From assembly GCA_934183185.1 (NCBI GenBank), contig CAKPSO010000002.1, positions 3,050 to 67,049 of the forward strand: a stretch of DNA of 64,000 bases, in the 5' to 3' direction. Shown here piece after piece: positions 2,819-14,861 of this stretch. The position numbers and the translations under genes are program-made. Numbering within the stretch: position 1 is the stretch's first letter; the number at the start of each line of letters is the position of its first letter. Under the pieces are notes generated by a model that saw only the letters and a program-made list of their open reading frames with translations, searched no databases and was not told where the DNA came from. Source of the DNA: an uncultured Bacilli bacterium (GTDB taxonomy: Bacteria > Bacillota_I > Bacilli_A > RF39 > UBA660).

Positions 2819-4693
2819 TTATACTAAATGGTCACAAATTAAATTACTAAGTTCAGTTGGATTATCTATAGGTAATCCCTCTATTAAACGGGCTTGAGCA
2901 TATAATATTTTACTATATTCTTTTACTGCTTCTGGATTTTCTTGGTAAAGATTTTTTAGTTTTTCAAAAATTGGATGTTTTTCATTTATTTCTAGAATGG
3001 TAGTTGCTTTTACATTTTCATCTGTAGGCATAGCATTAATAACTTTCTCCATTTCAATAGAAACATTACCATCACTAACTAGACATACTGGGTGATTTTT
3101 TAGTTGGTTAGTAATACGTACATCTTTAACATCTTTTATTGCTTCTTTCATTAATTCTAGCATATCATGATTGTCTTTATTTATTTTTTCAAGATCTTTC
3201 TTTTCTTCTTCTGAAGCAAGATCTAGTTTATTAGTAGAAGCATTAATAAATTTTTTATTTTCATATTCTCCAAGTGTCTGTAATACAAATTCATCTACGT
3301 AATCAGTACAATATAGAACATCATAGTTCTTATCCTTTAACTGTTCTACTTGCGGAAGTAAGGCTATTTTGTTTATATTTTCACCACAAGCATAGTAAAT
3401 GGTAGTTTGATCTTTAGACATATTATCTATATATTCTTTTAATGTTATTAGTTTTTCTTGTTTACCAGAATGGAATAAAAGTAAATCTTTTAGACTATCT
3501 TTATGAATACCAAATTCATTGTAGATACCAAATTTTAATTGCATACCGAAGGCTTTATAAAATTTTTCATAGTCCTCACGATTATCTTTTAACATTATTT
3601 CTAGTTCTTTTTTAATTTTTGATTCAATATTTTTAGCTATTAGCTGTAATTTATGATCTTTTTGAAGCATTTCCCTAGAAATGTTAAGTGATAAGTCTGG
3701 GCTATCTACTACTCCCTTTACAAAACTAAAGTAATCTGGCAATAAGTCACTACATTTTTCCATGATTAGAACTCCATTTGAGTATAATTGAAGTCCTTTT
3801 TCAAATTCTTTACTGTAATAATCAAGGGAAGCATGAGATGGAATATATAGTAATGAATTAAATGAGACAAGTCCTTCTAGTGAGTTATGTATTACTCTTA
3901 GCGGTTTTTCATAATCAAAGAATTTATCACTATAGAAAGTATCATACTCATCTTCAGATATTTTATTCTTATCACGTTTCCAAATAGGGATTAATGTATT
4001 AATAGTCTTTATTTCTTTAACAGTTTCGTATTCATCACTGTTTTCTTTTTTCTTTCTAGATTCTACTTCCATTTGAATAGGATATGTGATGTAATCGGAA
4101 TACTTTTTAATTAAATGTTCGATAGTATATGTGTCTAGGTATTGATCATAGTCTTCATCATCTGTATTTTCCTTGATAGTTAAAATTATTTTAGTACCAT
4201 TATCTTTTTTATCTGTTTTTTCAATGGTATAGCCATCTATACCGGTAGATGTCCATTTATACGCCTCATCGCTAGTAAATGATTTAGTGATTACTTCTAC
4301 TTTGTTGCTTACCATAAATGCTGAATAGAAGCCAACTCCAAATTGTCCAATTATATCAATGTTTTCCTTAGCTTCGTTTTCTTCTTTGAATGATAGAGAG
4401 CCACTTTTTGCAATAGTACCAAGATTGTCTTCAAGCTCTTCTTTAGTCATACCACAACCAGCATCAGTAATAGTTAGAGTTCTTTTATCTTTATTAATTT
4501 CAATAAAAATTTTAAAATCGTCTAAGTTTACTTTAACATCTTGATTAGTTAATGATAAGTAATGAAGTTTATCCATTGCATCACTGGCGTTAGAAATTAT
4601 TTCTCTTAGAAATATTTCTTTATTTGTATAGATTGAATTAATCATTAAATCCATTAATTTTTTTGATTCTGCTTTAAATTGGTGTTTTGCCAT
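2819..4693 (-). CDS. htpG: Molecular chaperone HtpG (Hsp90)
   Basis: 624 aa; HATPase_c motifs (NASDAMDKL, ITDAGCGMT, IGQFGVGFYS) and Hsp90 middle/C-terminal domains. Confidence 0.95.
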   Translation of the reverse strand: MAKHQFKAESKKLMDLMINSIYTNKEIFLREIISNASDAMDKLHYLSLTNQDVKVNLDDFKIFIEINKDKRTLTITDAGCGMTKEELEDNLGTIAKSGSLSFKEENEAKENIDIIGQFGVGFYSAFMVSNKVEVITKSFTSDEAYKWTSTGIDGYTIEKTDKKDNGTKIILTIKENTDDEDYDQYLDTYTIEHLIKKYSDYITYPIQMEVESRKKKENSDEYETVKEIKTINTLIPIWKRDKNKISEDEYDTFYSDKFFDYEKPLRVIHNSLEGLVSFNSLLYIPSHASLDYYSKEFEKGLQLYSNGVLIMEKCSDLLPDYFSFVKGVVDSPDLSLNISREMLQKDHKLQLIAKNIESKIKKELEIMLKDNREDYEKFYKAFGMQLKFGIYNEFGIHKDSLKDLLLFHSGKQEKLITLKEYIDNMSKDQTTIYYACGENINKIALLPQVEQLKDKNYDVLYCTDYVDEFVLQTLGEYENKKFINASTNKLDLASEEEKKDLEKINKDNHDMLELMKEAIKDVKDVRITNQLKNHPVCLVSDGNVSIEMEKVINAMPTDENVKATTILEINEKHPIFEKLKNLYQENPEAVKEYSKILYAQARLIEGLPIDNPTELSNLICDHLV

Positions 4694-4773: not shown

Positions 4774-5034
4774 TTAGCTATTATAAAGAAAATTTGATTT
4801 AATGTATTCTAATAAATCTTTAAATTTTATTTTCTTTTCATAACCATTTATAAATATATCATCACATTCATCAAACATTAAGTAATCTATTTCATTAATA
4901 GTTATTATATGAGGTTTAACATAAGCAAACTTACATATCATATCAACTTTCTTTTTTAATTTCTCACTTATATTTAATTCTTTAGTTTCTATTGTTAACA
5001 CATAATCACTCTCACTTTTTTTCTTAAATAACAA
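4774..5034 (-). CDS. Small hypothetical protein, paralog of ORF 9523..9804; doubtful TTG start without RBS (possibly a remnant)
   Basis: Shares ICKF/ICEF-centred similarity with the 93-aa ORF next to tRNA-Leu; start codon lies in the T-run of an upstream terminator. Confidence 0.3.
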   Translation of the reverse strand: MLFKKKSESDYVLTIETKELNISEKLKKKVDMICKFAYVKPHIITINEIDYLMFDECDDIFINGYEKKIKFKDLLEYIKSNFLYNS

Positions 5035-5079
5035 AAAAAACTAACATTTGTGTTAGTGCTTATTACTCTCGAGACTTTA

Positions 5080-5170
5080 AAAGTTCGAGTTTTCTATCTA
5101 TATGGTGCGAGCGACGTAGAGGTCTACAACTTTTTTTCGGCAATAACGATTCATATGAATCAATCTATAT
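5080..5170. repeat. att-like repeat copy A: diverged copy of the tRNA-Leu 3'-flank (GGTGCGAG..CGTAG..TCTACAACTT)
   Basis: Similar to 7333-7440 and to 9874-9910; preceded by minus-strand terminator hairpin CUAACA-CAAA-UGUUAG plus U-run at 5031-5058. Confidence 0.5.
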
Positions 5171-5255
5171 AAATTATACACTTATTATAAATAATAATAA
5201 AGTTTTTTTAATAAAAGCCATTTAAAAATAGTCTAAAAATTAGACTATTTCGCTA

Positions 5256-5798
5256 TTACATAGTTCTTCCAGATTTTTTCGAACTTTGAATAGAAGCTAA
5301 AACTTCTTCTCTTAATCCTAAACCTTCTACATAAGAATTTAATAATTCATCTGCTTCTTCAAAAGAAATACTTTCTTTATCAGTAATTGATGATAATGGT
5401 TTCATTCCAATTGCTGGATCATATTCACCGTTAATTTTAGAAACAACATTAGCAACTTTCATTTTTTCTTCACCATCAAATTCTTTAGCAAATCTAGCAA
5501 TACTATCACCAATTGCACTATATGATTTTGGTTGTGAATTTTCCCAGTTTAATTCTCCAAGAACTACATTACCAGTTAAATCTTCATATAATTGAACGCC
5601 TTCTAATTTTGGTGTTCCTATTCCAGTCATATTAATTGGATGAATACTTTGACTTATAATATCTTGACCAATTCCATCTACTTTTTTAAATATACCTACA
5701 CCATATTCACCTGTAGTTTGTTTTTCTCCATCTTGTTCCATGTATTTTTGATATACTGCAACAAATGAATTTTGAACATTAATATTTTCCATTTCCAT
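5256..5798 (-). CDS. Hypothetical protein (180 aa)
   Basis: Intact ORF, no recognisable motifs. Confidence 0.4.
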   Translation of the reverse strand: MEMENINVQNSFVAVYQKYMEQDGEKQTTGEYGVGIFKKVDGIGQDIISQSIHPINMTGIGTPKLEGVQLYEDLTGNVVLGELNWENSQPKSYSAIGDSIARFAKEFDGEEKMKVANVVSKINGEYDPAIGMKPLSSITDKESISFEEADELLNSYVEGLGLREEVLASIQSSKKSGRTM

Positions 5799-5922
5799 AT
5801 TTATACCTCCTTGTACAATTTAATTATATCATAAATATTGTTAAATCAATCTTTTTTTATAATTATTTTACATTATAATTCAATCGAACCATTTCTCTCT
5901 AACTGTGATTTCTTAGTTAATT

Positions 5923-6243
5923 TTACGGCTTCATATATATCATATTCTGCGTCTTCCCAATTCTTTTTAATGATTCAAATTTTACATTTTCTTTCACTGA
6001 TATAGCTTTTAAACTCAATACTTCTCCATTATATTCAATATCTCTTTGAGTTAAAGACTTCTTTGCACCTTCTACTGCTTTAATCATATTTCCTGTTTTT
6101 TTATACCAATCTGAAAGTGTTGATCTATTTATACCTTCTTTTTTTGCAATATCAGCCTGACTTAACATTTCGTCAAGATATTCATATAACTCTCCTCGCA
6201 TAATTTTCCTCCATTGCCAAATCATGTCTTTATAAAAATTCAT
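5923..6243 (-). CDS. Small HTH-containing protein (terminase-small-subunit/transposase-HTH-like)
   Basis: LSQADIAKKEGINRSTLSDWYKK helix-turn-helix-like segment. Confidence 0.35.
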   Translation of the reverse strand: MNFYKDMIWQWRKIMRGELYEYLDEMLSQADIAKKEGINRSTLSDWYKKTGNMIKAVEGAKKSLTQRDIEYNGEVLSLKAISVKENVKFESLKRIGKTQNMIYMKP

Positions 6244-6246
6244 AAA

Positions 6247-6585
6247 CTATTCTAAAATAATATTTTTAACACTAATTATTTCTTCATCAATCCACTTTAA
6301 ATATTCTTTATTTATACTTGATATATCATATATAGCAAACTCAAAGCATTCATAACTATGAACATTCCTTATAACATCAAATATTTTAGTTGAACAACTT
6401 TTTTTCGTCTTCATTTGAAGTAAATATTCTTTAGCAGCTTCTCGTTCATTCTTCCAATTCCAAATACTTTCACTTTCTATAGCATGACAACTTGCCACTA
6501 ATTTCTTATCTAATAATTGATTTATAACATTATTTAATTCTTCTTTATTATCAAATGCACTTTCTATCATACAATAATCATTCAT
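6247..6585 (-). CDS. cutA: CutA1 divalent-ion tolerance protein family
   Basis: 112 aa with VASCHAI...SIWNWKNE...NVHSYECFEF pattern typical of the CutA1 trimer family. Confidence 0.65.
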   Translation of the reverse strand: MNDYCMIESAFDNKEELNNVINQLLDKKLVASCHAIESESIWNWKNEREAAKEYLLQMKTKKSCSTKIFDVIRNVHSYECFEFAIYDISSINKEYLKWIDEEIISVKNIILE

Positions 6586-6598
6586 TATAAAAACCTCC

Positions 6599-7168
6599 CT
6601 ATAAATTTAAAATGAAATTATTTCCTTTATTTCTTATTTGTTCCATTTTATCTTTAGTATCTTTTAATTTATAGTCAAATCTATCAACTAACTTATTAAC
6701 ATAATCTAATTCTCTAATATAATTTAAACTCTCATCAAAATATAAACCATATATAAATGCAATATAAGAAATCCATATGTCAATTGGTGTTTTCCTATTC
6801 TTACTTAATATAGTTTTTTCATTCATAAAATCATTAAAAATATTATCTGATATTAATGAATTTTCAATTTCCTCTTGTGTCATATTTGCCATCGTATAAA
6901 TATCATCTTCATACTTTGCTCTAAATGAATCCAATTTATCAGCATCTCTAATAATTTTTGAATGTAATGCTTGTATTTCATCCATACTATCAAAATCAAC
7001 GATATATTTACTATGATTAGATATAGCAATTTTTATAATTTCATCATATTTATCAAATTCAACAAAACTTCTAATTAAATTATTTTCTATTAATAATTTA
7101 TCATTATTTATTTGTTGTTGTAATAATTCTAAATCTTTAATATTTTTATTATTCTTTAATACTTCCAT
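6599..7168 (-). CDS. HD-domain phosphohydrolase-like protein, probably C-terminal fragment
   Basis: Contains IIRDADKLDSFRA (terminal Asp motif of HD domains) but lacks the upstream H..HD motifs. Confidence 0.35.
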   Translation of the reverse strand: MEVLKNNKNIKDLELLQQQINNDKLLIENNLIRSFVEFDKYDEIIKIAISNHSKYIVDFDSMDEIQALHSKIIRDADKLDSFRAKYEDDIYTMANMTQEEIENSLISDNIFNDFMNEKTILSKNRKTPIDIWISYIAFIYGLYFDESLNYIRELDYVNKLVDRFDYKLKDTKDKMEQIRNKGNNFILNL

Positions 7169-7284
7169 TTATTATTATTGGAATAGTATTACAAAAATCA
7201 CATATTACCTTAACCTCGATTCTAAAGATTCTTCAATTTCAATTTCTTCTTTAATAATATTTACCATAGACAAATCCTTTCTAT

Positions 7285-7440
7285 GATTTTTTCAAAAAAA
7301 ACGAAAAAATCAATCATTTCTGATTGATTCATATATATAAGTTCGAATAGTTCGAACAGATTCTCTAGTGGTGCGAGTGTCGTAGTAATCTACAACTTTC
7401 TCACAAAGACGATTGATATTAGAATCAATCTCTAAATTCA
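7285..7440. repeat. att-like repeat copy B: copy of tRNA-Leu 3' end (TGGTGCG), its 3' flank hairpin and a terminator-like hairpin
   Basis: 7333-7375 AGTTCGAATAGTTCGAACAGATTCTCTAGTGGTGCG identical to 9874-9910; upstream 7285-7332 imperfectly matches 9821-9873. Confidence 0.6.
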
Positions 7441-7479
7441 TTTTAACATAAAAAATAAATAGTAGCAATAATTATGCCA

Positions 7480-8274
7480 CTATTTTCTTTTTTTTGTTAA
7501 AGTTGGTCCGTTTTCAGTATGTGATTTTTGTGTTGCTTGTTGTTCTTCTAGTAATTCATTTTTTAAATTTTCTAATGCTTGTTTTTGGTCGCTAATACTT
7601 AATTCTTGTACAGGTTTAGCAACTTCTTCTTTTTTATCATCTGAACTATGACTTAAATCTAAATTAGTGTTATTTCGTAGTGCATTTGCAAAACTCTCTT
7701 TATCACCATATTTTTCCATTCCTGCTGAAACAATATTTTTCCAAGCCTCAATAACTTTTTTCTTTTGTTCATCTACTGTTAATCTAGAAGCATCACCATT
7801 AACTTTTAAAATTGTGATATTTTCTAATGAATCATCCATTTCGTAGAATATTTCACTTTTTTCAGTGTCAGTCTCAATTTTAATTGAAGCAGCTTTTGAT
7901 ATTCTTATTTCATCCTTTAGTGGAATAAGAAGAGCATTTAATCCTGTTGGTTTTTTTTGATATTCTTGCTTTTCTATTTCTGACATTTCTTCTAATGCAT
8001 CCATCACATTTAATTGATCCAATATCATAGGTCTAGCATTATTATATTGAACTGTTCTTTGAAAAACTTGCATAATGTTAAATATTGGTATTAACATTGA
8101 TAAAAGTGTAGCTTTTGATGCATTTGGATTTAATTGTTTACTTAAATCTGACAATCTTCTTATATCAATTTTATATCCAGCATCAGCAACATCCTTAAAC
8201 ATTCTCAATTCATTTGCCATTTCCATGCAAAAACTTGCAATACTTGTACCTAACCATAAAACTAAAAGTTCCAT
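7480..8274 (-). CDS. Hypothetical protein (264 aa), N-terminal hydrophobic segment
   Basis: Intact ORF within the tRNA-associated module, no motifs recognised. Confidence 0.4.
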   Translation of the reverse strand: MELLVLWLGTSIASFCMEMANELRMFKDVADAGYKIDIRRLSDLSKQLNPNASKATLLSMLIPIFNIMQVFQRTVQYNNARPMILDQLNVMDALEEMSEIEKQEYQKKPTGLNALLIPLKDEIRISKAASIKIETDTEKSEIFYEMDDSLENITILKVNGDASRLTVDEQKKKVIEAWKNIVSAGMEKYGDKESFANALRNNTNLDLSHSSDDKKEEVAKPVQELSISDQKQALENLKNELLEEQQATQKSHTENGPTLTKKRK

Positions 8275-8327
8275 AATAAATTCCTCCTTTGAATTAGATC
8301 ATATAATAACACATTTACATATATTAG

Positions 8328-9520
8328 TCAAATTTCCATTTCAAAATCATCTTTTTCTCTTTCATAATCGTGATTTTTACTAAATTCATAAGTATCTTGT
8401 AAATCATCAAATGTCTCTTCTTCAATAATTTTCTTTGAATATAAATCTTCTGCAACGTCCATATATTTTTCACGTTCTTTTTCTTTTCCAAATAGTTTAT
8501 CTTTGATGAAAGATATTACTTTCAAAAATTTATCTTTCCAAAATGATAATGATTGTCTTAAAGAAAGGTTTTCTTCTTTTAAATCTTTGATTGGTTTATC
8601 TTTAACTTTATTATTTTTAGTTAGTGTATCAACTCTTAATTGTAATGCCTCATTATTTTCAGTTAGAGTTTGTATTTCTTTTTGATTTTCTTGTATCCCT
8701 TTATCTACATTATTAAGAGTAATAGATAATGTTTGAATATTTTTATATTCATCATTTGTTGTATCAACTTGATTCATATATTTTTCAATTTTGTCTTTAT
8801 CTTCTTGTTTTAAAATATAGTTGTCTTTCTTAATTAGTGTTGGTTTTAAATCACTTGTTATTTCTTTAACTTCTTTTGACTTGTTATCTAGTTCAAGAGA
8901 TTTTTTATTAGCTTTTTCTAAATTTTCTTGATTCTTTTCTAGTTGTTCTTTCATTTCCATATAATTATCCATTTCAGTTATATGATAATCTCTATTTCTA
9001 CCTTTTTGCTTTTTCTTTAAAGAGTTTGTAAGATTATATTCTTTATTAAATGATTCAATACATAATCTTATCATTTTATCTTGAAGTTCTATTAGTTTTG
9101 TTTTAGTAAAACCATCAGATTTACCAACTTGTTTAGACATACCATTTTTACTTTTATATTTTATTGGAACACCTACAATATGCATATGTGGACTTGTTTC
9201 ATCATAATGAATAATTGCACTTGCTACTTTAAAATTTGGAATTAGATTTTCTAAATCTTTTACTTGTTCTTTATAGACATTAGACATTTTATGTTTAAAA
9301 TTATCATCTTTAGTATCCCAGTACTTTTTATCTCCAAGTTCAATAATTATCTCGCAATCCAAATCATTTTTTGAATTATCACTAATCTTTTAGAAATAGT
9401 CATCTATTTTTCTATCATCTCTTGTTTGTTTTGCATTATATTCAAGTCTTGCTTCTTCAAACTCTTCTTTATATAAATTTTTAACATCATCATATAGTGA
9501 AGTAGTACTCTAACTATTTC
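8328..9520 (-). pseudogene. mob: MobV-family (Mob_Pre) relaxase, N-terminally disrupted/frameshifted
   Basis: 8328..9362 encodes the HYDETSPHMHIVGVPI HxDE..PHxH relaxase motif and a coiled-coil C-terminus, but starts only at TTG. N-terminal-like residues (DDVKNLYKEEFEEARLEYNAKQTRDDRKIDDYF) sit in another frame at 9390-9500 after a stop. Confidence 0.5.
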
Positions 9521-9522
9521 AA

Positions 9523-9804
9523 TTAAATGCCTTTTAAATAATCTTCTAACTCTGATATTTTAATCTTTTGTGATAAATTTTTAATATAAATCTCATTAGA
9601 ATAATTAAAAGCAAGAAATGTTACACCTTTAATGATTATCTTATGTGGCTCTACATAAGAAAGATTAGTTCTTGCTACCTTATGAATATAACCATTTATA
9701 AAAGTAGGTGTAGTATGTGAAAATTCACATATAAATTCTAATCTTTGTCTTAAAGATTCATCAAATGCAATTTCTTGCTTAATAATATTAATCATAAATA
9801 CCAT
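9523..9804 (-). CDS. Small hypothetical protein (93 aa), paralog of 4774..5034
   Basis: ATG with AGGAAAGG RBS; first gene downstream of the tRNA pair. Confidence 0.4.
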   Translation of the reverse strand: MVFMINIIKQEIAFDESLRQRLEFICEFSHTTPTFINGYIHKVARTNLSYVEPHKIIIKGVTFLAFNYSNEIYIKNLSQKIKISELEDYLKGI

Positions 9805-9820
9805 CCTTTCCTAATAGGAT

Positions 9821-9903
9821 GATTTTCCATAAAACGAAAAAATCAACCCAATTTGAGTTGATATTTATATTTAAAGTTCGAATAGTTCGAACAGATTCTC
9901 TAG
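9821..9903. repeat. att-like repeat copy C: native 3' flank of tRNA-Leu (hairpin GTTCGAA-TAG-TTCGAAC plus rho-independent terminator)
   Basis: Minus strand after tRNA 3' end: UCAAC-UCAAAUUGG-GUUGA followed by UUUUUU. Confidence 0.6.
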
Positions 9904-9988
9904 TGGTGCGGGTAACAGGAGTTGAACCTGCAAGCCTTGCGGCGCTAGATCCTAAGTCTAGTGCGTCTGCCAATTCCGCCATACCCGC
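9904..9988 (-). tRNA. tRNA-Leu (anticodon UAG), long variable arm, encoded CCA
   Basis: Reverse complement GCGGGTATGGCGGAATTGGCAGACGCACTAGACTTAGGATCTAGCGCCGCAAGGCTTGCAGGTTCAACTCCTGTTACCCGCACCA. Confidence 0.9.
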
Positions 9989-9993
9989 AAAAA

Positions 9994-10070
9994 TGGTGGA
10001 CCCTGATGGACTCGAACCATCGACCGCCCGGTTATGAGCCGGATGCTCTAACCAACTGAGCTAAGGGTCC
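9994..10070 (-). tRNA. tRNA with CAU anticodon, sequence resembles tRNA-Ile2 (lysidine) more than elongator Met; encoded CCA
   Basis: Reverse complement GGACCCTTAGCTCAGTTGGTTAGAGCATCCGGCTCATAACCGGGCGGTCGATGGTTCGAGTCCATCAGGGTCCACCA closely matches Bacillus tRNA-Ile(CAU) architecture. Confidence 0.8.
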
Positions 10071-10151
10071 ATGACTATTTAATAATAGCACAAAGATAAA
10101 TAGTATGCAACAACTTTTGTTAAAAAAAATTAATTTCCCTTAATTTTATTT

Positions 10152-11051
10152 CTATAGTCTGGATGGTGATTTAATTTTTTCTTTTAATTTGTCTTCTGGC
10201 ATACCTATACTAATGTTTTTTCTTCTTATTAAACCGTCTTTATTCATTTCAGTAAATAAATCATATAGAATTAATCTTTTTGCATTTTTTAGATTAATAA
10301 TATCACTGTCATTATTAGCTAAATAATTTATTGATTTATGTTCACAATAATGCTTTCTAAATATAAACCTTTGAGTACTGTCAGTTAATCCTTGAGATAC
10401 TTGATGAAATTTATCATATATTTTTATAATACTATTAGGATCCATTATTAGCAGTTTTATATCATTATATATTAAATCCATTTCAAAGGGATTTAATATA
10501 TATTTTATTTTTTCTTGTGGCACATGAATATAATAAAGTATTTCTCTATTTTTGATTGCAAATTTAATTCCTAAACTTTCTGGATCAACTGGTTCTCCAT
10601 CTTTACGTAGTAAAGCATTTCGTTCATATAATTTATCTATTGACTCTTTATTACTAGTATCAATACTTCCATATCCAAAAGTATTTTCTAAACTGCAGTT
10701 TCTATCTAATACTGCTACTTTATTTATGTCTTGGCTAACATAAAAATCAAGCATATTAAATGGTGATTTAGAAAATGAAATCCAGCGTGTAGGTACATGA
10801 GTACCATTTAGTAAATGAGCAGCTATATCTTTTCTTATATCTTTATTAAGGTCTTCTGAAATTTGTTTATTTACTATCGATGTAAAACTAGGATTATTAA
10901 TTAGGTCTTTGATATGAATGTTACTATCAAAAATGTTTTGATTTAGTAATATTTCTTCTTTCAATCTTACCAAAATATCTTTACTATACATTCCAAGATT
11001 CTGTTCTACTGTAGCTAAATCAAATTTATTTAAGGCACGATAGATATACAT
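10152..11051 (-). CDS. Hypothetical protein (299 aa)
   Basis: Intact ORF adjacent to tRNA genes, no motifs recognised. Confidence 0.4.
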   Translation of the reverse strand: MYIYRALNKFDLATVEQNLGMYSKDILVRLKEEILLNQNIFDSNIHIKDLINNPSFTSIVNKQISEDLNKDIRKDIAAHLLNGTHVPTRWISFSKSPFNMLDFYVSQDINKVAVLDRNCSLENTFGYGSIDTSNKESIDKLYERNALLRKDGEPVDPESLGIKFAIKNREILYYIHVPQEKIKYILNPFEMDLIYNDIKLLIMDPNSIIKIYDKFHQVSQGLTDSTQRFIFRKHYCEHKSINYLANNDSDIINLKNAKRLILYDLFTEMNKDGLIRRKNISIGMPEDKLKEKIKSPSRL

Positions 11052-11132
11052 TATGCAACACCTCTTTTTTTGCCAATTAATATAACACTAATTATAATTA
11101 ATGTAAATAATAAAAGTAGGAATTTTTATTCC

Positions 11133-11561
11133 CTACTTGTGCAACATATTCATTAATTCAATTTTAAACATATCTCTTTTGGCATTTGACTTAGAAACCA
11201 TAACTCCCTTATATGTTGATAATTCTATTCTATGTCCCTCTTCAAAGATATCTTCTGGAGTTATATTGGTTAGTAATATGGTATTATTCTTAGAAAATAT
11301 AGTATAGTGTAATCTGATTACACCATGAACTTTTTTAAATAAATCATCAGTTGGCAACTCCAATTCATATGATACACTTGATTCATTTTTATTTTCTTCA
11401 ACAACTTTGCCTAAAAAGTTTCCATTTTTAAGCTCAGGATAATACTGGAATACTAATTTTTTATATGCTAACATGTTATATTTACGAAGTGAACGTTCTT
11501 TTAATCTAAAATCGTTTTCATTTAGATAATCAAAAATATATCCTTTTTTCATTTCAACCAT
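11133..11561 (-). CDS. Hypothetical protein with weak RelE/ParE-like C-terminal pattern
   Basis: HGVIRLHYTIFSKNNTILLTNI resembles the RelE/ParE beta-strand core; low confidence. Confidence 0.3.
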   Translation of the reverse strand: MVEMKKGYIFDYLNENDFRLKERSLRKYNMLAYKKLVFQYYPELKNGNFLGKVVEENKNESSVSYELELPTDDLFKKVHGVIRLHYTIFSKNNTILLTNITPEDIFEEGHRIELSTYKGVMVSKSNAKRDMFKIELMNMLHK

Positions 11562-13487: not shown

Positions 13488-14861
13488 CTAAAACTCTATG
13501 TCATCATGGCAGTGACAATCACCATTACATGAACAGTCGTCACCATTATCATGGCAATTACATTCATGATCGCTGCAACAACATGCATCATCATCTACTA
13601 ATGATTCATCTAAATAATACATTAAATAATCAAGTTCAACTGTTGTTTCCTCTTTAGTTTTATTATTTTTAACTTTAATTTCATTATTTTTTAAGTCTTC
13701 ATCATTTAGAATGATTAGGAATTTACTATTTAATCTATCTGCCTGTTTAAACTGTGATTTTAAACCTCTACCTGTATATTCAGTATCTACTTTAAAGCCA
13801 CTCATACGAAGTTCCTGTACTAAGGTTGCTGCATATTCTTTTTCTGTATCAGATACATACATAACGAAACAGTCAATAGTATTATCTATTGGTAGTTCTA
13901 TGCCTTCTTTTTCTATAGCTAACATAAGTCTACCTATACCCATAGCGAAGCCTATTCCTGGCACTTCTGGCCCACCTAATTGACTAGATAGTGAATTGTA
14001 TCTTCCACCAGCCCCAAGTGCATTTTGACTACCGAATCCCTCAACCATTGCTTCTATCTCAAAAACAGTGTGATCATAATAATCAAGTCCACGTACGACA
14101 TTTGGATTTACTTCAAAATCAATATCCATCTGTGTAAGATATTCTTGAACATTCTCAAATCTTTTGCGGCTTTCATCATTTAGATAATCTATAATCTTAG
14201 GAGCTTTTTTCATAATATCAGTATTTTCATCTACCTTACAGTCTAAAATACGTAGTGGATTTTTCTCTAAACGATTCTTACAGTCATCACACATTTTATC
14301 AATATAAGGTGTAAAGTATTCAATTAAAGATTTGCGATAATTATCACGTGATTCTTTGTCACCTAGTGAGTTAATATTTACTTTAATTCCTTTTAATCCT
14401 ACTAATTTATAGATATTTACAGCCATAGAGATAACTTCAGCATCTATCATAGGATCATCACTACCTATTACTTCTACACCAAACTGAGTAAGTTCTCTAT
14501 CTCTACCTGATTGTGGTCTTTCATAACGATACATTGTACCATTATAATATAGTTTGATAGGTTGTGTTGCTTCTCCATACATTTTGTTTTCAATGTAACT
14601 TCTAACTACTCCAGCTGTTCCTTCTGGTCTTAGAGTCATTTTTCTATCTCCTCGATCGATAAAATCATAGGTTTCTTTAGTAACTATATCACTAGTTTCA
14701 CCTACCCCTCTATGAAATAATTCACTAGATTCAAATATTGGTGTACGAATATACTGATAGTTATATTTTTCACATACTGAGTCTATTAAATCATTTACAT
14801 ATTTCCATTTTTTTGCTTCTATGCCATATATATCATGACATCCCTTTGGTTTTGTTATCAT
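13488..14861 (-). CDS. hisS: Histidine--tRNA ligase with unusual Cys/His-rich C-terminal tail
   Basis: Class II HisRS motifs (RYERPQSGRDRELTQFGVE, GGRYNSL); last ~35 aa DDDACCCSDHECNCHDNGDDCSCNGDCHCHDDIEF. Confidence 0.9.
   Translation of the reverse strand: MITKPKGCHDIYGIEAKKWKYVNDLIDSVCEKYNYQYIRTPIFESSELFHRGVGETSDIVTKETYDFIDRGDRKMTLRPEGTAGVVRSYIENKMYGEATQPIKLYYNGTMYRYERPQSGRDRELTQFGVEVIGSDDPMIDAEVISMAVNIYKLVGLKGIKVNINSLGDKESRDNYRKSLIEYFTPYIDKMCDDCKNRLEKNPLRILDCKVDENTDIMKKAPKIIDYLNDESRKRFENVQEYLTQMDIDFEVNPNVVRGLDYYDHTVFEIEAMVEGFGSQNALGAGGRYNSLSSQLGGPEVPGIGFAMGIGRLMLAIEKEGIELPIDNTIDCFVMYVSDTEKEYAATLVQELRMSGFKVDTEYTGRGLKSQFKQADRLNSKFLIILNDEDLKNNEIKVKNNKTKEETTVELDYLMYYLDESLVDDDACCCSDHECNCHDNGDDCSCNGDCHCHDDIEF

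Follow-up and report, generated by a model that had tools for sequence, protein, structure and literature searches.

Tn4451 and Tn4453 are clostridial mobilizable transposons of ~6 kb, with the large serine recombinase TnpX at one end, TnpV, and a Mob_Pre relaxase (TnpZ) that lies behind a structured non-coding region (PMC5704250), and the target specificity of Tn4451 is low (PMC5704250). Other integrative mobilizable elements (IMEs) with serine integrases insert inside genes (PMC5704250, PMC5357655), and the tandem accretion of integrative elements, with their decay to cis-mobilizable elements (CIMEs), is well known (PMC5704250, PMC5357655). Indeed, the CIMEs and tandem IMEs and integrative conjugative elements (ICEs) described in streptococci by the Guedon group keep att-type ends, have lost integration and transfer genes and are stacked at the 3' end of a target gene (PMC5704250, PMC5357655). 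Here we analyse a locus that resembles each of these systems in part. It lies in a 64,000-nt stretch of DNA from an uncultured Bacilli bacterium (GenBank assembly GCA_934183185.1, contig CAKPSO010000002.1), which we call the window; all coordinates are window positions, unless they follow an L-number (L001 and so on), which denotes a relative's locus fetched for comparison. Behind a tRNA-Leu(TAG) gene of this window stand, in order, E1 (9903-7376), E2 (7368-5110), the stub of E3 (5102-4774) and htpG. We regard this region, with a probability of about 0.85, as a tandem array formed by the accretion of three decayed members of one IME family. The anatomy of the units, their homology to intact elements, a deletion in E1, the diversity of targets across genomes and a precise insertion relative to a sister species were all observed.

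As in the CIMEs, att-type ends flank both E1 and E2, whose P' and P arms match the family consensus, and E1 lacks recombination and transfer genes, being the intact element of L022 minus 2.5 kb, with a relaxase pseudogene. The CIMEs and IMEs described at tRNA or gene 3' ends have tyrosine integrases and long identity segments, whereas this family has a serine recombinase and shares ~7 nt with the tRNA. No large serine recombinase is encoded in the 64-kb window (best tblastn E value 0.48), while the intact relatives do encode one; the window units are thus derivatives and not functional members of a Tn4451-type group. Intact members of the family share the architecture of Tn4451/Tn4453; the family differs from these in targeting the CCA of tRNA or transfer-messenger RNA (tmRNA) genes and in carrying, next to the tRNA, a conserved small orphan gene and a terminator as additions. 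Tn4451 combines low specificity with a 2-bp crossover, whereas the targets of the family are always 3' ends of a tRNA, a tmRNA or a pseudo-tRNA. The serine-integrase IMEs and ICEs of Firmicutes (rumA, traG, maff2, snf2) and SCCmec share with the family a sole large serine recombinase, a very short core and site specificity. The former disrupt their target genes and SCCmec (CcrAB) uses one protein-gene end, the 3' end of rlmH, whereas the family enters many tRNA and tmRNA genes and leaves them intact. The islands and prophages that tyrosine integrases place at tRNA and tmRNA genes resemble it in the 3'-end target, the preserved gene and the frequency of tandem arrays. Their repeats are a substantial 3' part of the tRNA, whereas the window repeat holds 7 nt of it; the family carries a pseudo-tRNA end instead of a replacement tRNA 3' segment, and no Phage_integrase domain was found in the array's open reading frames (ORFs) with Pfam. 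For large serine recombinases, tRNA and tmRNA 3' ends are an unusual target, of a class normally used by tyrosine integrases; no description of a serine-recombinase element targeting tRNA ends was found in the literature searched, and the family appears to be undescribed.

The junctions between the units carry much of the argument. The 37-nt string AAGTTCGAATAGTTCGAACAGATTCTCTAGTGGTGCG occurs in two exact copies, at 9874-9910 (copy A) and 7339-7375 (copy B), with 0 expected in shuffles, and its last 7 nt, TGGTGCG (9904-9910), are the reverse complement of the terminal CGCACCA of tRNA-Leu. A third TGGTGCG (copy C, 5103-5109) has in common with copy B a 31-nt extension followed by a hairpin; this extension, TGGTGCGAGnnnCGTAGnnnTCTACAACTTT, matches the window at 5103-5133 and 7369-7399 only (0 expected). 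The likeness of A and B runs past the 37 nt, through a terminator-like hairpin (9842-9862 versus ~7308-7329), to the start of the small gene (7223-7268 versus 9751-9796, 85%). The exact repeat, the diverged hairpins and the third copy had all been noticed in the original prediction, a reading of the window's letters that preceded this work. It took the repeats for copies of the tRNA 3' flank, and this is correct for the 7-nt core, which is the whole tRNA share of the 37-nt repeat; the remaining 30 nt are the element's own conserved arm. Copies B and C are not copies of the tRNA flank: B joins a P to a P' arm and is attP-like, and both are attP-like or attR-like junctions with a pseudo-tRNA end. 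Each unit follows the same plan, a conserved arm with a GTTCGAAC hairpin, a terminator and then the small orphan gene; E1 and E2 close with a pseudo-tRNA 3' end (..AAGTTGTAGAnnnCTACG..GCACCA), which the E3 stub does not have. At copies B and C, no tRNA is recognised by ARAGORN or by Rfam. Since the E-value scan with Rfam yields only the two tRNAs that ARAGORN also finds in the window, tRNA-Met and tRNA-Leu(TAG), the pseudo-tRNA ends are not tRNA genes; the arms are not covered by any known RNA family.

Two simpler origins of these repeats can be weighed on the junctions. The first is that they represent a conserved tRNA terminator or processing motif of the organism, with no mobile element involved, a reading which the original prediction had raised against itself. 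The repeat does include a terminator-like hairpin, and arm-like flanks stand behind tRNAs even without element genes, as in the sister species; but copies B and C have no tRNA, the arm and P-arm motifs are confined within the window to the array region, and across hundreds of genomes the arms bracket recombinase and relaxase genes, which contradicts this reading and leaves it hardly credible. According to the second, local segmental duplication or gene conversion made copies A and B, and E1 and E2 would be one rearranged element. Identity of A and B over the full 37 nt (100%), a P' start (CTAGAG) unique to both and the existence elsewhere of mosaic arrays with shuffled pieces (e.g., L127) would suit it. 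However, outside the 37 nt the proximal arms are only ~72-85% identical, a P'..P pair is complete in each of the two units, as in single intact elements, and tandem P/P' junctions are also found in other genomes (L009, L012, L036, L048), so that we consider such a duplication rather improbable.

The accretion of separate elements is further supported by the intact relatives. In a collection with one genome per species, at least 573 loci matched, and the details given here come from 87 fetched loci (L001-L087), the best 80 of which (L008-L087) are all from uncultured, mostly gut-derived metagenome-assembled genomes (MAGs) labelled Bacilli, 'Tenericutes' or Clostridia. To judge from their sequences, intact members measure 5-9 kb (6-9 kb in such examples as L010 474-6514, L035 9900-19023 and L060 9902-16264) and carry, in this order, the small orphan gene, a large serine recombinase, a conserved intergenic region, a Mob_Pre relaxase and variable cargo. 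The recombinase measures ~640 aa, has Resolvase, Recombinase and Zn-ribbon domains (Pfam), is 'integrase' in PHROG and Ccr/XisF-like in NCBIfam; a homolog lies behind the small gene in 58 of the 73 informative loci, and it is at most 31% identical to any recombinase in plasmid and phage collections. The 460-aa relaxase follows downstream, with the same gene order across relatives. Between the two genes, 230 nt are highly conserved (L022 2555-2800, L010 2968-3210, L060 12460-12705) and contain the inverted repeats CTAGGGA..TCCCTAG and ATTTTGA..TCAAAAT; this region is probably the origin of transfer (oriT), for which it is our candidate. The cargo includes TnpV (PF14198, in 12 relatives), KilA-N, YhcG and others.

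In all 87 loci the P' junction reads CCA followed by nnGACGwwTCTGTTCGAAC, then hairpin, terminator, ribosome-binding site and small gene. The element is closed by a strongly conserved P arm, ..AAAAAGTTGTAGATAnCTACGnnnnnnGC(A/T)CCA, seen in 29 attR-type and 4 tandem junctions, beyond which the native flanks are diverse and often hold terminators. In the relatives, genes for a serine recombinase and for a MobV relaxase thus stand between the same two arms at the 3' ends of tRNAs, which bears out the proposal that att-type tandem junctions delimit decayed remnants of mobilizable elements. The integrase missing from the window is, on the strength of these homologs, a large serine recombinase, something that lay beyond the sight of the original prediction. 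Its statement that the region has no tyrosine or serine recombinase stands for serine recombinases in the 64 kb (tblastn) and for tyrosine recombinases in the ten ORFs of 4774-11561, among which Pfam found 0 integrase or recombinase domains, the rest of the window not having been searched for the tyrosine type. One could also imagine that the units are remnants of a prophage or phage satellite and not of a conjugatively mobilizable element, given that large serine recombinases are common as phage integrases, that the best PHROG of the recombinase is 'integrase' and that one relative encodes a KilA-N protein. Yet there are no structural or packaging genes, the PHROG yield of the window ORFs is one generic helix-turn-helix (HTH) protein, a MobV relaxase and TnpV are present and a repeat scan of viral contigs gave 0 matches; a phage origin is therefore very unlikely in our estimation.

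A sister species (aspartyl-tRNA synthetase, AspRS, 88% identical; L090-L094) offers the empty junction with which the original prediction had proposed a comparison. The order there is AspRS, p142, tRNA-Met and tRNA-Leu(TAG), and the end of tRNA-Leu, ..CCCGCACCA, is joined directly to the distal flank TATTGATATCGAACTCGGGCTTTTATAGTTCGAG. This junction, CACCA joined to TATTGATA..AACTCG.., is homologous beyond the CCA to window 5102-5058, and no small gene, recombinase or relaxase lies downstream of it. Since the sister CCA is joined to an E3-type arm, window 5103-9903 (4801 bp, E1 and E2) is a precise insertion flanked by CGCACCA. By its sequence the sister flank is itself the arm of a diverged subfamily, so that E3 would be the oldest and most eroded occupant. 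Stepwise accretion beside the tRNA fits a gradient of decay from E1 (least) to E3 (most). The order and independence of the insertions are not provable, because other arrays have the more intact unit in the distal position; a general rule that the proximal unit is the youngest was rejected on the same loci (L016, L042, L087). No strain polymorphism was found, contigs with identical HtpG having the same array.

The absence of E1 and E2 together from the sister species also agrees with a joint arrival of the whole composite, whether or not it had already decayed, its outermost sites having served to excise and integrate it as one tandem unit, and composite transfer of the CIME-IME or CIME-ICE type is known (PMC5704250). 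Neither an intermediate nor an identical composite was seen elsewhere, the pieces of L127 being related but differently ordered, and the decay gradient suits stepwise accretion at least equally; we hold a single arrival to be unlikely, though deserving of attention.

Stepwise accretion also accords with the state of each unit, beginning with E1 (Table 1). Its alignment to L022 with blastn falls into two blocks, window 9981-9521 with L022 5-465 (88%) and window 9528-8328 with L022 2976-4177 (78%), which overlap by 8 nt; on this alignment E1 is a clean 2.5-kb deletion derivative of an intact element. What has been deleted comprises the recombinase gene, the conserved recombinase-relaxase intergenic region with its putative oriT and relaxase codons 1-68. 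What remains of the relaxase aligns in a single frame, with 68% identity, to residues 69-460 of the full-length protein and is interrupted by one nonsense codon (AAA to TAA, 9390-9392). The disrupted MobV relaxase with its HxDE..PHxH motif kept had been predicted correctly; its N-terminus, placed by the prediction in another frame, proves to be in the same frame as the 344-aa ORF, separated by the TAA, with the first 68 codons deleted. Without these codons and with this stop, the window copy is not a functional Mob/Pre (MOBV) relaxase, and the relatives have it intact (460 aa). Disruption through genetic code 4 (TGA as Trp) was considered and rejected, as housekeeping ORFs are long in table 11 and the stop is TAA. 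An intact form of the E1 lineage exists in L130, where a recombinase gene that the contig end truncates precedes a Mob protein of 462 aa, a 264-aa protein with 96% identity to that of E1 and a P arm. In a blastn comparison of E1 with plasmids, the relaxase core was the sole match.

The P' arm of E1 is near-identical to the arm behind tRNA-Thr in L001-L006. These loci (e.g., L003 1163-2596) hold a 1.4-kb unit behind tRNA-Thr(GGT), with a small gene 97% identical to that of E1 and no recombinase; the unit runs to a degenerate ..GGGCACCA, after which comes TTCGAAC. Small derivatives without a recombinase are thus found repeatedly, at other tRNAs too.

Table 1. Features of the array and its borders (window positions)
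Feature	Position	Strand	Description	Source
tRNA-Met(CAT)	9994..10070	-	upstream partner of the target tRNA	ARAGORN, Rfam
tRNA-Leu(TAG)	9904..9988	-	intact, CCA encoded; targeted for integration at its 3' end (B half of attL)	ARAGORN, Rfam
Core copy A	9904..9910	-	CGCACCA on the minus strand; tRNA/E1 junction (attL)	
E1 P' arm	9805..9903	-	invariant TCTGTTCGAAC at 9885-9895; GTTCGAA/TTCGAAC hairpin 9876-9892; terminator-like hairpin 9842-9862	
Small orphan gene, 93 aa	9523..9804	-	first gene of the element family	
E1 deletion junction	9521..9528	-	2.5 kb missing versus intact L022	blastn
Mob_Pre (MobV-type) relaxase pseudogene	8328..9512	-		Pfam; alignment to intact protein
264-aa protein	7480..8274	-	function unassigned; backbone or cargo gene of the E1 lineage	
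E1 P arm	7376..7448	-	hairpin, then pseudo-tRNA 3' end AAAGTTGTAGATTACTACGACACTCGCACCA; 78% identical to the L010 attR arm	
Core copy B	7369..7375	-	attP-like junction, E1 P arm/E2 P' arm	
E2 P' arm	7268..7368	-	first 30 nt as in E1, then diverged terminator hairpin ~7308-7329	
E2 small-gene remnant	~7150..7267	-	frameshifted, truncated	three-frame translation, alignment
E2 cargo	5256..7168	-	189-aa ORF 6599-7168; CutA1 6247-6585; HTH protein 5923-6243; 180-aa ORF 5256-5798	
E2 P arm	5110..5170	-	hairpin, then pseudo-tRNA 3' end AAAGTTGTAGACCTCTACGTCGCTCGCACCA	
Core copy C	5103..5109	-	junction, E2 P arm/E3-type arm	
E3 stub	4774..5102	-	diverged P'-type arm (TATAGATAGAAAACTCGAAC.., two hairpins), then 86-aa small-gene paralog	
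htpG	2819..4693	-	first chromosomal gene past the array	

E2 and E3 are more decayed than E1. E2, whose P arm ends in ..GTAGACCTCTACGTCGCTCGCACCA, has neither recombinase nor relaxase. Its 189-aa ORF (6599-7168), proposed originally as an HD-domain fragment, finds no support in Pfam, NCBIfam or PHROG, nor by comparison with the HD_3 protein of L001, and that assignment was given up. The 86-aa protein of E3 is a paralog of the 93-aa protein (BLASTP E value 2e-11), as had been claimed for the genes that follow copies A and C; the claim had passed over copy B, which is followed by a frameshifted remnant as well. E3-type arms recur elsewhere, together with an s86-like gene in L074 and, as far as seen, as the arm only in L027, L051 and L085. 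A further decayed mosaic array, in a different genome, occupies L127 6437-12430 (also L128, L129, L131): an E3-type arm and an s86-like gene stand directly behind tRNA-Leu(CAA), and the other parts are the C-terminal fragment of a relaxase, accompanied by p264 and by a P arm in which mutation has turned CCA into CTA, another remnant of the small gene, a recombinase fragment of 111 aa and, last, one more P arm. E1, E2 and E3 are all non-autonomous; at most, an intact relative could move them, in cis or in trans, as with CIMEs.

The targets of the family were compared across the fetched loci. In about 60 of the 87, the small gene starts ~100 nt past the CCA of a tRNA, and elsewhere it follows a tmRNA 3' end or a pseudo-tRNA end; the target tRNAs are those for Thr, Arg, Leu (four anticodons), Gly, Tyr and Met. 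Recombinases with 94-98% identity occur at different targets (98% between Leu-TAG and Thr-GGT, 97% between tmRNA and Leu-GAG), those at Met, Tyr, Leu, Arg and tmRNA being 92-95% identical, and six MAGs hold two copies, each at a different tRNA. Contigs often break just past the small gene, since such a repeat is expected to break assemblies. As we read the sequences, the discriminator base (A or T) of the tRNA equals that of the P arm wherever both ends are visible, and the exchange should accordingly fall in or beside NCCA, which is as far as the sequences resolve the crossover. Target tRNAs have the T-loop GTTC 24 nt from the end, and the P arms a similar GTTG 28 nt from the end. Around the P/P' junction, AACTTT lies 26-31 nt to either side of the CCA end; by our reading the symmetry is otherwise weak and the B' flanks are diverse.

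For large serine recombinases, attP measures ~50 bp and attB ~40 bp, both with imperfect inverted symmetry around a central dinucleotide, and the offset between GTTC and GTTG is reminiscent of the differing domain spacing on attB and attP of serine integrases. According to the mechanism that we propose, the 3' end of a tRNA or tmRNA gene would serve as attB, and the recombinase would join it to the element's attP, in which the P arm, with its pseudo-tRNA end ..GC(A/T)CCA, abuts the P' arm. A relaxase-mediated, oriT-like mode of integration was also considered and was abandoned when the relatives proved to have the recombinase. With a crossover within or beside the discriminator-CCA, the tRNA would stay intact through integration, and the P' arm would bring it a new terminator. 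In the window, a single 2.5-kb deletion took from E1 its recombinase, the N-terminus of the relaxase and the putative oriT between them, and the nonsense codon came afterwards; E2 is reduced to two arms, a small-gene remnant and cargo, and E3 to an arm and a small-gene paralog.

It is also conceivable, and we advance it tentatively, at somewhat less than even odds, that this lineage reads generic features of tRNA 3' ends (the T-loop GTTCRA at a fixed distance and the discriminator-CCA) as attB. In that case every tRNA or tmRNA gene with an encoded CCA would offer a landing pad, and near-identical enzymes would fill many tRNAs, at times several in one genome, and accumulate in arrays. The small protein, whose start site is sequestered, might control direction or timing, and stubs such as E1 and E2 might be movable in trans.

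The small protein to which this last idea assigns a role is widespread. The 93-aa protein has 1606 homologs and 886 clusters at 50% identity, matches nothing in Pfam, PHROG or NCBIfam, and its AlphaFold2 model (pLDDT 86) gave no fold match; an exact database look-up returned nothing because the databases call a 90-aa form. A stem over the Shine-Dalgarno sequence and the start codon (window 9800-9823, minus strand) pairs CATCC with the GGATG that holds the start codon. It covaries in the relatives (CAACC/GGTTG, CTTCC/GGAGG and G-U variants) and can form in almost all of the 72 unique sequences among L001-L087, which suggests translational control of the small gene.

Several points weigh against accretion by such a recombinase. 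The E1 and E2 P' arms begin with CTAGAG, found in no other locus, which makes common descent, gene conversion or composite arrival possible instead of independent insertions. The cargo of E2 has no counterpart in the 87 family loci, save two partial matches of the 189-aa ORF. Serine recombinases normally read both half-sites, and the very diverse flanks on the far side of attR are hard to square with this. In L077 (10001-11745), the place of the serine recombinase behind the P' arm and small gene at tRNA-Tyr is taken by a tyrosine integrase (Phage_integrase, E value 4e-29), and a truncated relaxase comes next. A swap of modules or one insertion nested in another may explain this; the integrase is the only tyrosine-type one among those checked with Pfam, the 87 loci not having been screened systematically for such integrases. 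Finally, serine-recombinase catalysis, where the crossover lies, which region is the oriT, what the small protein does and in what order the elements inserted are what we infer and not what was observed.

The neighbourhood of the array varies too. All genes between 2.8 and 16 kb of the window are on the minus strand. A 299-aa ORF (10152-11051, weak DUF7587 match) lies between p142 and tRNA-Met and is absent from the sister species, in which p142 directly precedes tRNA-Met; it represents a second indel at the tRNA locus, on the upstream side. The interval from tRNA-Leu to the genes for transketolase and a conserved Big_2 surface protein holds htpG (2819-4693) in the window species, while the sister has there (L093 12655-17823) a gene for a 206-aa protein and two ABC-transporter genes and no htpG; the whole stretch downstream of tRNA-Leu is thus a variable region. 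The histidyl-tRNA synthetase ORF (13488-14861) has an unusual Cys/His/Asp-rich tail, ..DDDACCCSDHECNCHDNGDDCSCNGDCHCHDDIEF.

The array in the window is itself wreckage, the product of ordinary decay and of a fate known for integrative elements. The family from which it derives is abundant in uncultured gut Bacilli, as the matching loci of the species collection indicate, and accounts for many contig breaks beside tRNAs in these MAGs. To judge from the sequences of its target sites, its specificity is apparently pan-tRNA. If this is true, the family would provide a test case for how serine integrases read an attB poor in half-sites, and a serine integrase of natural origin whose landing site is nearly universal in bacteria and which would be useful for the engineering of non-model gut bacteria.

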